A DNA stretch of 26,225 nt from a virus (Duplodnaviria; Heunggongvirae; Uroviricota; Caudoviricetes). Location: the IMG/VR virus record IMGVR_UViG_638341087_000002. The stretch is one strand, 5' to 3'. A program made the translations under genes and the position numbers. How positions within the stretch are numbered: position 1 is the stretch's first letter; every line of letters begins with the position of its first letter. Shown here one piece after another: positions 21,897-25,916 of this stretch. Below the pieces are notes generated by a model that worked only from the letters and a program-made list of their open reading frames with translations, was not told the DNA's origin and searched no databases.

Positions 21897-23843
21897 TCAT
21901 GCCGCAGTGTCTGTGCTGTTCACTTCCACCGCAATGCTGTCTATCAGTACCGGGTAAGTCGCACCTCTGGTAATGTCTGTCACATGCAGTTTATCCGCCG
22001 CAAAGGCACTGACCGGTGACTGCGTCAGCGTGAACGGTGTGCCATCCTGACCATCAATAACCGGCGTCACCTGCAGGCTGTTATTCCCGGCAAAGCGGAA
22101 AGCCAGCGTATGCCATTCGTTATCAAATGCGCCAAAGGTTCCCAGTTTCAGGTTGTTTGTCGCCACTTTCGCATTGTGGTACATCACATTCAGGTCTTTT
22201 GCATCTGTCTGGATGTAGAACGCTGCCAGCAGGTTATTCCCCCCGTCTCCGGTCAGGGCAACGCCCTGTGGCAGTGAAGATACCGGCCAGTAAAACGCCA
22301 TAACATACTGGTTCGCAGCCAGCNCTCCCGAAACCTTAAAGCGGCAGCGAATCTGCCCCCCTTTCTGTAACAGAGCCGCACCGTTGCCCGCGGCGTACTC
22401 CAGCACCCAGCTGCTTTTACCGGCTTCCTTGGTCAGCTTCACTGCCTTACCTCCGGTTCCCTCCGCATCGCTGACCACTTCTGCCCTGCCGCCACTGGCT
22501 GACCATCCCTGTACTTTCAGGCTTCCCTCTGACTCGCTGGCAAGGTAAGAGAGCAGTGTTGTGACGCCTGTGGCTTCTGCACCGGAAGGCGATGACGGGC
22601 GCACCTCTGATACTGTCGATGATGCCCCCGCGTTTAGCGCCACTCTTCCCGCATGGCGCAAAATCGCCGTTGCCAGACGGTCGGAAATAATCCCGCGGCG
22701 AGCCCATGAACTGAAATGGCTCGCCCTGTCCTGTGACGTCCAGGTGGCTGAGCTGTCACGCCATTTCGAACCGTAATATCCGATACCCGGAATGTCCGGG
22801 TCTTCTTCCGGTTTGTTCGTCGGCACATTCACCCCGTTCTCATCCGTCATGAACGGTACGAAATGGATATTCTTTTCCGTTTTGTTTTTGTAGCTGCCGT
22901 ACACCGTCTGGTACGTGGATTCGTTCTTCTGCTTCCAGAAATACGTCGTATCTCCACATATCCAGGGAACACCGCCAGCAGAGCCNCCGACGCACTGACC
23001 TGCCATATCCGCCAGGTCTGCACGGAATTTATCAACCAGCGCACCAAACTGTGCTGCGTGATTTACCGGCGTACCGCCAAAATCAAATTCCCCCTGCATC
23101 CACNCCACGGCAAACAGCACATTTTTCGGGTTCTTCTTCAGTGCTGCTTTTGTTCGACCGATAAGGTCCTTATACAGCGGCTTGTCCACACCCCAGCGGG
23201 TTGAATTCTCCGAGGCACCACTCGCGTCACTGTATGTGCCATCAGCTCCGGTGGTGAACGCTGAACCACCACGACAGCACGGAACCAGCAGAATGCCCGC
23301 ATTCGCCGGTATAAACGGCAGCAGTTTTTTGGCGATATGCAGCCCCTGCCCCACGGTTCCGTACTGCCCCTTTGACAGGTCCGCTTTCGGATGGTTAAGG
23401 CGGCTCATGTCCTGCACATCATGCAGACAATGGTCCGCCGGAATGATGTCGTTATATTTACAGGCGACACCGCCCGGTGTCACCGTACTGCGACGCGCCA
23501 GCTGCTTAATGCGCAGGTCCGGACGGTCATATGTCTCCGGCAGCGGAAGGCCTTCACCATATGCCATGCTGTTTGACTGCCCCGCCAGAACCACAACAAA
23601 GTAATACTCCGGGTCTCTGGTGGCGCTGATTACTGTGCCTTCTCCATCCGACGGCTTCACCACAACAGGTGTGCTCACATCACCTTCTGCGACAATCGCC
23701 TGAATAAGTGCTGCGCCATCATCCGTATACGAAGAAAACGGCCCGCCGTATGGTTGCCATCCTTCACGAATTTTTTGAGCAAGTGCATCAGCAAGGTCTG
23801 ACGGCGACACCGCCCTGACCACATCATAATGTTTAATCGACAT
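21897..23843 (-). CDS. nanS-p: Prophage sialate O-acetylesterase NanS-p-like (SGNH/SASA hydrolase core with N- and C-terminal accessory domains); contains ambiguous bases
   Basis: 648-aa ORF; GQSN-type motif (VLAGQSNSMAYGEG) characteristic of sialate O-acetylesterases; size and location (between the tRNA/toxin locus and the holin) match the yjhS/nanS homologue of Stx phages. Three N bases (22325, 22986, 23104). Confidence 0.8.
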   Translation of the reverse strand: MSIKHYDVVRAVSPSDLADALAQKIREGWQPYGGPFSSYTDDGAALIQAIVAEGDVSTPVVVKPSDGEGTVISATRDPEYYFVVVLAGQSNSMAYGEGLPLPETYDRPDLRIKQLARRSTVTPGGVACKYNDIIPADHCLHDVQDMSRLNHPKADLSKGQYGTVGQGLHIAKKLLPFIPANAGILLVPCCRGGSAFTTGADGTYSDASGASENSTRWGVDKPLYKDLIGRTKAALKKNPKNVLFAVXWMQGEFDFGGTPVNHAAQFGALVDKFRADLADMAGQCVXGSAGGVPWICGDTTYFWKQKNESTYQTVYGSYKNKTEKNIHFVPFMTDENGVNVPTNKPEEDPDIPGIGYYGSKWRDSSATWTSQDRASHFSSWARRGIISDRLATAILRHAGRVALNAGASSTVSEVRPSSPSGAEATGVTTLLSYLASESEGSLKVQGWSASGGRAEVVSDAEGTGGKAVKLTKEAGKSSWVLEYAAGNGAALLQKGGQIRCRFKVSGXLAANQYVMAFYWPVSSLPQGVALTGDGGNNLLAAFYIQTDAKDLNVMYHNAKVATNNLKLGTFGAFDNEWHTLAFRFAGNNSLQVTPVIDGQDGTPFTLTQSPVSAFAADKLHVTDITRGATYPVLIDSIAVEVNSTDTAA

Positions 23844-23919
23844 CGAATTTCTCCCGTGTAGAGGAACAGAGTTAAAAAGCCGGAAGCGGAATCAAATCAC
23901 AGGATGACCATCTGCCAGT

Positions 23920-23948
23920 GGCTGGTCGTAAAAAAAAGGCCGCGCCAT
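23920..23948 (-). terminator. Candidate intrinsic terminator upstream of nanS-p
   Basis: Minus strand GGCUGCGC-AUG-GCGCGGCC (one G-U wobble) followed by a U8 tract; about 80 nt upstream of the nanS-p start. Confidence 0.5.
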
Positions 23949-24157
23949 GCGCAGCCGAAAATAAAGGGATAACGATGATAGTTTGAGAAAAACAGAAATA
24001 ACACTTTTGTGGCAAAGCATGGTGCCGGGTGCCTCCCGGTGAATTCAGTATCAGCACCTGAATCCGCGATTACCCCATATTCCTTCTTGCTGATTGCCCC
24101 ACCGCACAGGGGGATTCACCATGCAGAAGTGTTTTTAATAAACAGCAAACAAAAAAA

Positions 24158-24325
24158 TCAAGCATTATGCAGGCTGTTTCTTTTTATCACCGGCCACAGC
24201 AATACCATAATGCCGCAGACCAGCACCCCATCCGCCAGCACCGACATGATTCTGCTGGTGAAATCCACCATCACCACCAGAAACAGCAGGAGTGCAGCCA
24301 CAGCCAGGCGCAGTTTTACCGTCAC
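24158..24325 (-). CDS. Hypothetical 55-aa two-TM small membrane protein, start codon overlapping the TerB-like stop
   Basis: GTG at 24323-24325 overlaps the TerB-like stop (GTGA) with GGAG 8 nt upstream; VTVKLRLAVAALLLFLVVMVDFTSRIMSVLADGVLVCGIMVLLWPVIKRNSLHNA has two hydrophobic segments. Not in the supplied track in this frame. Confidence 0.3.
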   Translation of the reverse strand: MTVKLRLAVAALLLFLVVMVDFTSRIMSVLADGVLVCGIMVLLWPVIKRNSLHNA

Positions 24326-24753
24326 AGGTGATTCTCCAGACGAAGACCCAGAACACCGGCAATCTCTTCCAGCACCTTGCGCTCTTCCGGCTCAATTTCG
24401 CCGTCTGCCTCCGCAATGGCCACCGCCACATCCAGCACATCTTCCGCTTCACGCGTATCGTGTTTCACATCCTCAATCTCGCGTAACGCGGCACGACGAC
24501 CAATTTTAAAATTGGTATCCAGCTGACCGATAATAGTTGCGCTAATCGCATTAATTTCCGAGGTAAACGCAGACAACGCAGGCTGATTACGTAAGACCTG
24601 TTCGATCTTCGCTTTCTCGGATGCCTCGCATTCACCATCTGCATAGGCCACCAGGTATGCAGCGTTAATCACCGCCTGTGCCAGATCGCGTTTCTCAAAC
24701 TTTTTAATTTCCGCTGCCGCTCTGCGGGTTTTCTTTTTGAAGATTCCAAACAT
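24322..24753 (-). CDS. TerB-like domain protein (tellurite-resistance TerB family fold), 143 aa
   Basis: ATG at 24751-24753 with AGGAA SD (track ORF starts at an upstream GTG). Two repeats of the TerB-type motif: AYADGECEASEKAKIEQVL and AEADGEIEPEERKVLEEIAGVLGL. Confidence 0.55.
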   Translation of the reverse strand: MFGIFKKKTRRAAAEIKKFEKRDLAQAVINAAYLVAYADGECEASEKAKIEQVLRNQPALSAFTSEINAISATIIGQLDTNFKIGRRAALREIEDVKHDTREAEDVLDVAVAIAEADGEIEPEERKVLEEIAGVLGLRLENHL

Positions 24754-24884
24754 CGTGACGTTCCTTTGGGTGGGTGAGCCAACGCCCGGGAGCGATCTGC
24801 CCACAGAGAAAGTCACACTGACCACTCCGTAAGCTCACCCCCGAAAGGCTCTGTGGTTGATATGCGCCGGGCGTGGCGCAGATA

Positions 24885-24909
24885 CAAAAAAGGCCCGCCG
24901 AAGCGAGCC
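24885..24909 (-). terminator. Intrinsic terminator downstream of the tRNA cluster
   Basis: Minus strand GGCUCGC-UUCG-GCGGGCC (UUCG tetraloop, one G-U pair) followed by UUUUUUG, about 14 nt after the last tRNA. Confidence 0.6.
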
Positions 24910-24922
24910 TGGAAAATAAGTG

Positions 24923-24999
24923 TGGCGCGTTGTAGTGGAGTCGAACCACTGACCGATTGCTTAGAAGGCAATTGCTCTGTCCGACTGAGCTAACAACGC
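24923..24999 (-). tRNA. argN: tRNA-Arg (anticodon UCU, reads AGA/AGG)
   Basis: Hand-folded cloverleaf: acceptor GCGTTGT/ACAACGC, D-arm GCTC..GAGC, anticodon stem ATTGC/GCAAT with loop CTTCTAA, T-arm AGTGG-TTCGACT-CCACT, discriminator G, encoded CCA. Confidence 0.8.
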
Positions 25000-25012: not shown

Positions 25013-25089
25013 TGGACCGCCATCGGGGACTTGAACCCCGCGCAGCCAGCTTCGAAGGCTGGCGCTCTGTCCCGATGAGCTAATGGCGG
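25013..25089 (-). tRNA. argO: tRNA-Arg (anticodon UCG, reads CGA/CGG); atypical C1:G72 and U73
   Basis: Hand-folded cloverleaf: acceptor CCGCCAT/ATGGCGG, D-arm GCTC..GAGC, anticodon stem CCAGC/GCTGG with loop CTTCGAA, T-arm CGGGG-TTCAAGT-CCCCG, encoded CCA. Gene symbol assigned by position only. Confidence 0.65.
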
Positions 25090-25098
25090 TATGTGATA

Positions 25099-25174
25099 TG
25101 GTGGCCCTTGCTGGATTTGAACCAGCGACCTGGCGATTATGAGTCGCTCGCTCTCACCACTGAGCTAAAGGGCC
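25099..25174 (-). tRNA. ileZ: tRNA-Ile2 (anticodon CAU, lysidine-type, reads AUA)
   Basis: 76 nt GGCCCTTTAGCTCAGTGGTGAGAGCGAGCGACTCATAATCGCCAGGTCGCTGGTTCAAATCCAGCAAGGGCCACCA; near-identical to E. coli ileX/ileY as remembered; anticodon loop CTCATAA. Confidence 0.85.
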
Positions 25175-25202: not shown

Positions 25203-25916
25203 TCAATAATCAAGCCCTTGCCTGGATACATATCTGTCTGGCGGGAAGCCATAATAGCGGTGAAATACAGAAATAAAGTAGGACCTGCTTGAATAACCGC
25301 ATTTTTCTGCTATAGCCTGTCCATATCCATGCCGGGAACATAACATATTTACAGCAACACGCATCCGCTCTTCCAGCAACAAGCGACTGAACATGCCCCC
25401 TTCATTTTTCAGTTTTGTCTTTAACAAACTCTCACTCATATGCAACTGTAGAGCAATCGCACCAAGCGTCCAGCTTGCTGATATATCTGTCTGAATTATC
25501 GCCCTGACTTTGGCACTTATGCTGGATAAACATCCACTTAAAAACAATGACATCCGTTCATCTGTTTCAAACAGAGACAGGCAGGCCATCATAAGAAACA
25601 TATCCGTGGCCTCTCCGGAAAATCCCTGGCTGGTAATTAAAGCCGCAGCCAACGCAGGATTGTTGGGTTCCAGCAACAGGTAAAGCGGAATGTCAGTCAG
25701 ACGAGTCCTCGTCAGCTTATGCTGACTTTCCAGATATTGACTTACGACGGATTCGCTTATATCGACAATTTTAACTTTGCCATAATGCATAAGGAAAAGC
25801 TCCCTGATGCATTTGGTGGCCAGAACGACTGAGCCTGGCTTAAGTGACAACGTATCCTTTTCAAGAAAAATATTAATTGGGGAGCAAACCATGATAACTG
25901 AACAGACAACAGCCAT
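25203..25916 (-). CDS. AraC/XylS-family transcriptional regulator (prophage cargo gene)
   Basis: 237-aa ORF with C-terminal AraC-type double HTH (WTLGAIALQLHMSESLLKTKLKNEGGMFSRLL.EERMRVAVNMLCSRHGYGQAIAEKCGYSSRSYFISVFHRYYGFPPDRY). Start uncertain (Met1 at 25916 or Met9 at 25892; neither has a strong SD). Confidence 0.8.
   Translation of the reverse strand: MAVVCSVIMVCSPINIFLEKDTLSLKPGSVVLATKCIRELFLMHYGKVKIVDISESVVSQYLESQHKLTRTRLTDIPLYLLLEPNNPALAAALITSQGFSGEATDMFLMMACLSLFETDERMSLFLSGCLSSISAKVRAIIQTDISASWTLGAIALQLHMSESLLKTKLKNEGGMFSRLLLEERMRVAVNMLCSRHGYGQAIAEKCGYSSRSYFISVFHRYYGFPPDRYVSRQGLDY

Follow-up and report, generated by a model that had tools for sequence, protein, structure and literature searches.

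The tciA-tciB gene pair as cargo in the Shiga toxin slot of a lambdoid prophage

Introduction

Phages that carry Shiga toxin (Stx), such as 933W, hold the stxAB genes between a cluster of tRNA genes and nanS-p, and the locus described here raises the question of what a lambdoid prophage places in that slot in the absence of the toxin, and what such cargo might do. The DNA in question is the IMG/VR virus record IMGVR_UViG_638341087_000002 (Caudoviricetes), whose whole stretch of 26,225 nucleotides is called the window in what follows, all positions being counted from its first letter. The slot is filled in the window by two overlapping genes, which are the phage tciA-tciB cassette: the pair is already named and widely annotated, and its reading frames overlap by GTGA and are translationally coupled. 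The cassette (tciAB) is interchangeable cargo in the slot that holds stxAB in Stx phages, in the late operon of a lambdoid prophage. Its two genes are the following.

24322..24753, minus strand: tciA, encoding a 143-amino-acid TerB-family protein (Pfam, PHROG, match to a PDB structure, AlphaFold2 fold)
24158..24325, minus strand: tciB, encoding a 55-amino-acid DUF3927 protein with two transmembrane segments (Pfam, PHROG, hydropathy)

An earlier, sequence-only reading of the window had placed a 143-amino-acid TerB-like protein with two ADG motifs and an overlapping 55-codon open reading frame (ORF) for a two-transmembrane peptide (GTGA, GGAG) in the stxAB slot between the tRNA cluster and nanS-p, and had suggested that they could be an uncharacterised two-gene module for abortive infection or exclusion, or a toxin-like one, which terminators on both sides could make an independent transcription unit. 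The slot and the two genes held up in the comparisons given below; the pair itself proved to be a named one, with RefSeq, PHROG and Pfam annotation, and its independent transcription found no support.

Two overlapping genes under selection

TciA is a TerB-family protein with a TerB-like fold. Its gene starts with ATG, 8 nt downstream of a Shine-Dalgarno sequence (AAGGA, 24766-24762), and the product matches the Pfam TerB family PF05099 (E=2.9e-16, 60.2 bits, cut-off 24.4) and PHROG 632, 'tellurite resistance' (E=1.7e-69). Residues 14-137 of the 143 align with residues 20-144 of the Klebsiella TerB structure PDB 2JXU (phmmer, E=4.4e-8). The AlphaFold2 (AF2) model built from an alignment is all-alpha, with a predicted local distance difference test score (pLDDT) of 88.3 and a predicted template modelling score (pTM) of 0.82, and was used instead of a single-sequence model, which was poor (pLDDT 57). 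Its top PDB matches in Foldseek are the TerB-like structure 2H5N (probability 1.0, TM-score 0.55-0.62) and 2OU3, a 'tellurite resistance protein of COG3793', the E-values of the matches being modest (0.015-0.65). Two ADG-x5-E motifs are present, A38-D39-G40..E46 and A116-D117-G118..E124, which align with the equivalent motifs of TerB and are invariant or at least 90% conserved among 24 homologues. The protein has a basic N-terminus (net +6 over 23 residues) and is acidic elsewhere.

The tciB frame starts with a GTG codon that overlaps the tciA stop as GTGA and is preceded by the Shine-Dalgarno sequence GGAG (24337-24334). Its product matches the Pfam family DUF3927 (PF13064; E=2.2e-16, 60.0 bits, gathering score 25) and PHROG 1470, 'TciB-like' (E=1.3e-29), and carries the signature D-F-T-S...L-A-D-G...W-P..K, common to the homologues of P1, Pollock, Klebsiella and Nican01. 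Two hydrophobic segments are seen in the hydropathy profile, 1-31 and 32-49, and basic residues stand at both ends (K4 and R6; K48 and R49), which by the positive-inside rule would fit a hairpin with the two ends in the cytoplasm (N-in/C-in). Assignment of TciB as a holin was considered and rejected, its Pfam match being to DUF3927 only and to no holin family.

Selection was estimated from sets of close relatives collected with single-protein queries, in which TciA is 97-100% identical and the nanS-p fragment 77-99%; these sets served the selection and slot statistics, not the description of deep diversity. The pooled ratio of non-synonymous to synonymous polymorphism (pN/pS) of tciA is 0.023 over 37 distinct variants, against 0.086 for the holin and 0.116 for the lysozyme of the same loci, and among close relatives pS reaches 0.45 while pN is at most 0.014. 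The tciB frame is intact, with the GGAG and the GTGA junction kept, in about 85 of 88 related loci, and pN/pS is about 0.1 over codons 2-36; codons 37-48 approach neutrality (about 0.8), followed by a variable tail. Given the low pN/pS values and the intact tciB of about 85 of the 88 loci, both genes are real and selected, and a decaying remnant, which was also considered, is ruled out by the pN/pS values. Three tail variants exist of the C-terminal third of TciB (codons 37-55, 24158-24215), against 97-100% identity in TciA, and this variable end falls at the boundary where the cassette recombines on its 3' side.

The pair has been annotated many times. A 99.8%-identical segment of E. coli O145:H28 and O103:H2 carries the RefSeq labels 'tellurite resistance TerB family protein' and 'DUF3927 family protein', and the two genes are annotated as tciA and tciB in phage JLK-2012. 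The coding pair was found at a coverage of at least 80% in 800 of 5426 complete E. coli genomes, with a median of 3 and a maximum of 8 copies, and the genomes sampled from this table of matches belong to many serotypes of enterohaemorrhagic (EHEC) and Shiga toxin-producing (STEC) E. coli. In phage P1 the annotation tciA-tciB(-tciC) goes back to Lobocka et al. 2004 (GenBank NC_005856), and the P1 tci genes were reported as non-essential by CRISPR interference (CRISPRi). For the N4-like phage Pollock, the authors of its description state that what TciA does in a lytic phage is unknown.

The toxin position as an interchangeable cargo site

The cassette lies between tRNA genes and a terminator on one side and a small RNA (sRNA) gene, a second terminator and nanS-p on the other.

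25099..25174, minus strand: tRNA with a CAT anticodon, ileZ-type tRNA-Ile2, called Met(CAT) by ARAGORN (ARAGORN; Rfam tRNA, 72.5 bits)
25013..25089, minus strand: argN-type tRNA-Arg(TCG) (ARAGORN, Rfam)
24923..24999, minus strand: argO-type tRNA-Arg(TCT) (ARAGORN, Rfam)
24883..24910, minus strand (stem 24910-24891): terminator-like hairpin 3' of argO, with 8 pairs, a UUCG loop and a T-run (terminator scan)
23981..24153, minus strand: STnc100-family (PasD-related) sRNA gene (Rfam RF02076)
23930..23956, minus strand (stem 23956-23938): terminator-like hairpin 3' of the sRNA, with 8 pairs and T8 (terminator scan)
21897..23843, minus strand: nanS-p homologue (DUF1737, SASA esterase and DUF6645 by Pfam), adjoining the lysis cassette upstream

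Alignment with 933W shows where the cargo begins and ends. Positions 25178-24875, with ileZ, argN, argO and the terminator, are 94.7% identical to 933W, and the hairpin after argO corresponds to the terminator annotated there upstream of stx2A. Positions 24874-24143 are without a counterpart and stand in for stx2A, stx2B and about 90 nt; past 24143 the homology is partial, and 23856-21897 then aligns at 92% with the esterase of the ST933Wp42 region. Compared with four 'empty' sites, the cassette (about 24885-24144) replaces just 48-80 nt. The breakpoints against 933W and the empty sites give a cassette of about 740 bp, with its left boundary at about 24887-24875 and its right boundary at about 24143. 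Both of the terminators that were said to bracket the module are present on the minus strand, the second some 8 nt from where it had been placed.

The same slot was then surveyed in 80 IMG/VR loci picked by similarity to the N-terminus of the window's nanS-p, which makes them a non-random sample. The slot is empty in about 24 of these loci and holds stx2 in 12, stx1-like genes in 7 and tciA-tciB in 12 (one of them truncated); a paralogue of the AraC-family regulator described below fills it in 4, a membrane protein of the phage 434 type together with TciB in 1, and the remaining 20 could not be interpreted. The 933W alignment confirms the placement of the pair in the stxAB slot, and the survey shows which other cargo the slot can hold. 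Stx phages such as 933W share the order of the flanks, namely ileZ-argN-argO, terminator, cargo, a remnant of an STnc100-type sRNA, and nanS-p, while the cargo itself is unrelated, Stx being an AB5 toxin secreted to act on eukaryotic cells and TciA and TciB having their predicted site of action at the inner membrane of the bacterium.

Some variants of the slot were also seen. In two loci (L118 and L140) about 2.5-2.7 kb of extra DNA, probably an insertion sequence, lies between the argO terminator and tciA, so that the distance from the tRNA genes to nanS-p is 3.6-4.2 kb as against the usual 1.08-1.66 kb. Phages 434 and 2B8 resemble the window in having a DUF3927/TciB gene followed by an STnc100-type region and a terminator upstream of a SASA esterase, and differ from it in having no TerB, their TciB being preceded by a 247-amino-acid multi-pass membrane protein without a Pfam match. 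In phage 434 (L003, 1671-2903) and in locus L163, TciB is followed by a 62-amino-acid ORF that overlaps the terminator.

A small RNA downstream and the transcription of the cassette

An sRNA gene that had been overlooked in the earlier reading begins 5 nt past the tciB stop codon. It matches Rfam RF02076 over model positions 1-206 with 100.8 bits (gathering score 47) and E=3.6e-21; the fit to the model is poor in its 3' terminal stem, and the local terminator is found at 23956-23938. This hairpin is common to phages 434 and 2B8, where it is labelled as a terminator. The STnc100 element lies upstream of nanS-p in most of the loci in which the region could be examined, in empty, stx1, stx2 and tciAB slots alike. 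Copies of STnc100 have been reported as expressed in EHEC lysogens, located 75 nt downstream of stx2B, and a 2026 preprint relates STnc100 to the PasD sRNAs and lists TerB among the genes often located beside PasA and PasC. A CATAAT hexamer within the end of tciB (24169-24164) is a candidate -10 element of the sRNA.

Because STnc100 is present at this site whatever the cargo, the downstream terminator is most simply that of the sRNA, and it probably stops transcripts of the STnc100-type sRNA and any that read through from tciAB alike. In the interval between the argO terminator and tciA, a simple promoter scan found no sigma-70-like promoter. A promoter-like site, TTGATT-17-TATTAT, is located on the minus strand at 25213-25185, before the ileZ-type tRNA, which is the place of the putative tRNA promoter pT in 933W. 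An autonomous transcription unit, as proposed in the earlier reading, is consequently not indicated, since no promoter was found and the terminator follows an sRNA that is constant in the slot. A simpler reading is late transcription under Q, the mode of stx2, and we infer that the cassette is probably transcribed in this way.

Distribution of the pair among phages

The association of the two families was followed beyond the close relatives. At the species level, a scan with a DUF3927 alignment gave 18 loci of Enterobacterales, a 5-sequence alignment being used since a broader alignment of 9 sequences was too divergent. In 15 of these 18 species loci an intact TerB gene runs right up to the start of DUF3927; a truncated one is found in 1, and there is none in 2. 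Since tblastn with TciB aligned residues 21-55 only, probably through low-complexity filtering of the first transmembrane segment, co-occurrence was judged by inspection of the reading frames. Among 12 diverse phages, a DUF3927 frame abuts TerB in 6: this window, P1, Pollock, the Erwinia jumbo phage ChrisDB, Klebsiella phage 5 LV-2017 and Pseudomonas phage Nican01. In the Pseudomonas phages AF (L086, 2433-2654) and Zuri (L171, 1643-1846), TerB is abutted by an unrelated small protein with one transmembrane segment, which suggests that TerB can swap its small membrane partners; this protein has an N-terminal transmembrane helix and the conserved motif YGWQTERET(K/R)YA..FVGCMV. Vibrio phage BUCT194 (L173) shows the arrangement TerB-TerC-TerB. 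Two database entries (P0124 and P0186) that appear as TerB-DUF3927 fusion proteins were considered as evidence of interaction and set aside, as they are frameshift products with junctions scrambled at the GTGA overlap.

The genomic contexts of the pair are diverse and have one feature in common, which is that all of them are operons of lytic growth. The pair stands between a Q antiterminator gene and the holin gene in Pseudescherichia, in Pantoea stewartii and in an unclassified genome of the Enterobacterales, with Q proteins of two families and holins of three families that are non-homologous across these loci, and in a Klebsiella lambdoid phage it lies between Q and the endolysin. In P1 it belongs to the C1-repressed ban operon, between the tRNA genes trnT and trnI(CAT), in Pollock to an early or middle region, in the jumbo phage ChrisDB to a tRNA cluster, and in Rosenbergiella it is found near recT. 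The pair repeatedly adjoins tRNA genes in unrelated phage backbones (P1, ChrisDB, L176, L179, L180, L189-L191 and this window), with a tRNA gene within 3 kb in 6 of the 18 species loci. This proximity could reflect nothing more than shared hot-spots for cargo.

The closest described counterpart is the tci region of P1. The same two families are present in the same order, with abutting or overlapping frames, TciA being 42% identical over 143 amino acids and TciB 55% identical over 31 amino acids (Pfam E=7e-31); the P1 genes likewise adjoin a tRNA-Ile2(CAT) gene and are non-essential accessory cargo. On the other hand, P1 has a third gene, tciC, for a protein of 35 amino acids with one transmembrane segment, whereas the window shows no evident equivalent and has the STnc100 sRNA instead, and the copy in P1 belongs to the ban operon, under C1 repression, as opposed to the Q-dependent lambdoid late region of the window.

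Neighbouring genes in the window

The remainder of the window is a lambdoid late region, with DUF826, an S21-type holin, lysozyme, the large terminase subunit and portal genes, a ClpP-capsid fusion, the tail tube, the tape measure and J. Around the tciAB cassette lie tRNA genes, a regulator gene of the AraC type, nanS-p, and genes for lysis and for structural proteins. Two of these features are used below or in the survey above.

21192-20977: S21-type holin ORF, the window's own holin
25916-25203, minus strand: AraC/YdeO-like regulator gene, 237 amino acids, upstream of the tRNAs

The best NCBIfam similarities of the AraC-family regulator are to YdeO and GadX, both under the cut-offs. We take the gene at 25203-25916 to resemble the EHEC prophage regulators of acid resistance and the type III secretion system (T3SS) of the Psr/PatE class. 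A near-identical locus of E. coli O103:H2 has the AraC-family gene between a putative antiterminator (DUF1133) gene and the tRNAs, and a paralogue, 59% identical, fills the cargo slot itself in loci L147, L149 and L162. The nanS-p frame contains ambiguous N bases (for example base 23104) that give X at three translated positions; E. coli O103:H2 12009 has a near-identical copy whose annotation is that of a frameshifted pseudogene.

What the pair may do

We tentatively favour a reading in which TciA and TciB would together act at the inner membrane and guard the infected cell during lytic growth. Polymerase antiterminated by Q would read through the argO terminator, so that tciAB would be made with the late genes, in lytic development, just before and along with the holin and endolysin. 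TciB would reside in the inner membrane with both of its short, positively charged ends in the cytoplasm, where it would probably dock or regulate TciA, an amphitropic TerB protein that would sit at the cytoplasmic face with its basic N-terminus and its acidic TerB body, which probably binds cations. The complex may stabilise or monitor the inner membrane, and could thus shield a productive infection from premature depolarisation by colicins, superinfecting phages or pore-forming abortive-infection effectors of the host, protecting holin timing and burst size.

Expression in the lytic cycle is argued for by the lack of a promoter of its own in the scanned interval, the position between Q and holin, the C1-repressed operon of P1 and the occurrence in virulent phages. 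The protective role is proposed by analogy with the phenotypes of plasmid ter clusters, namely resistance to pore-forming colicins and to phages. The ter literature describes TerB as associated with the membrane and ter clusters as conferring colicin and phage resistance. The TerB of terZABCDEF resembles TciA in near full-length homology, size, two ADG-type acidic motifs and an all-alpha fold; it differs in its setting, since its membrane partner is the multi-pass TerC rather than a 55-amino-acid hairpin, and its home is a plasmid or genomic island rather than a phage.

Several points weigh against this model of a membrane guard. The model presumes a putative physical interaction of TciA and TciB, and each family also occurs apart: DUF3927 is found without TerB in phages 434 and 2B8 and in 2 of the 18 species loci, and no small membrane ORF follows TerB in the phages Vibrio K481, PMBT3 and phiM5. 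A weak or non-sigma-70 promoter of tciA may exist, the timing of expression being read from position and a simple scan. The benefit of tciABC is conditional, because about half of one subgroup of P1-like plasmids is without these genes, having lost the variable region in which they lie. Whether the pair protects or kills is a direction that would be taken from the ter operon, by analogy, and nothing in the sequence sets it. Finally, the literature searched contained no functional study of tciA or tciB, only naming by homology.

A superinfection-exclusion or anti-phage module is possible, though on balance unlikely. TciA would here be a TerB-type membrane-surveillance sensor and TciB a small membrane effector, and the two would block the entry of competing phages or abort them, to the gain of a lysogen or of a phage already infecting. 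Inhibition of phages by the plasmid ter cluster, as described in the ter literature, would agree with this. TerB-domain proteins occur in the validated defence systems Bunzi, Shango and Dionysus, which, like the pair, combine a TerB-domain protein with membrane-embedded components, as in the TerB-like DinB and pore-forming DinC of Dionysus; the slot is a cargo or moron position between terminators; and EHEC genomes hold up to 8 copies, one per chromosomal match site. Virulent phages may carry exclusion genes as well (imm and sp of T4), so that the presence of the pair in lytic phages is compatible with exclusion. The resemblance to the defence systems is nevertheless partial, as their partners are helicases/ATPases or MAEBL proteins, the window has a two-transmembrane peptide of 55 amino acids where the pore former has four transmembrane segments, and the TerB module of the window's type is encoded by phages, virulent ones included. 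Against PADLOC-DB v2 the best match of TciA was PDC-S48 only (E=0.0035, 14.5 bits), which is not meaningful, and TciB had none; Dionysus post-dates the copy used and was compared by architecture alone. The partner genes of Bunzi, Shango and Dionysus were not found in the window. Exclusion is further disfavoured by the position within a late transcript with no promoter of its own found, by the repressor-controlled lytic operon of P1, which a lysogen is not expected to express, and by the redundancy for defence of several near-identical copies per genome. Occurrence in virulent phages and in lytic operons likewise argues against an abortive-infection toxin expressed by the lysogen.

Counter-defence, in which TciA and TciB would neutralise membrane-depolarising immunity, pore-forming abortive-infection effectors or TerB surveillance of the Bunzi, Shango and Dionysus kind, appears improbable. 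The pair might act on the TerB sensor of the host, as a mimic or by jamming it, or else make the inner membrane more stable. If true, this would account for the same constrained pair in temperate lambdoid, P1-like, virulent N4-like and jumbo phages, as well as for its expression from lytic operons and the small membrane partner that accompanies it.

A modulator of lysis timing is more doubtful still. TciB, with the topology of a class II holin, and TciA would tune holin triggering in an antiholin-like or pro-holin manner, which would agree with the size and predicted topology of TciB, similar to those of small holins, and with the recurrence of the order Q, TerB-DUF3927, holin with three holin and two Q families, in addition to the Q/endolysin position in the Klebsiella phage. 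However, the window already has an S21-type holin, the P1, N4-like and jumbo phages carry the pair in early or tRNA regions far from their lysis genes, and the interval from Q to holin serves in general as a cargo slot, for stx among others, so that adjacency may have no functional meaning.

Equally doubtful is a stress gene of lysogenic conversion, by which the host would gain resistance to tellurite, metals or colicins, or have its cell division inhibited, as the name 'tci' suggests: homology to the TerB of tellurite-resistance operons, the annotation in P1 and in reviews, and the enrichment in EHEC and STEC genomes speak for it, but TerC, TerD, TerA, TerE and TerZ are all missing from the vicinity in the window, the TerC and TerD-family genes being needed for ter phenotypes, strictly lytic phages also carry the pair, the scan revealed no promoter for use in a lysogen, and the genes were named by homology only.

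Conclusions

As a discovery the cassette adds little, since the two genes already have names, belong to Pfam and PHROG families and bear annotations in hundreds of genomes. It remains a pointer to a gene pair of uncharacterised function, of which tciA is under tighter constraint than the adjoining lysis genes, and which reaches up to 8 copies per EHEC genome and is common to virulent and jumbo phages, at a time when the TerB domain family has only recently been tied to the conflict between phages and bacteria. The function of tciAB would tell what lambdoid phages put in the toxin slot when they carry no Stx, and maybe how TerB acts at membranes.

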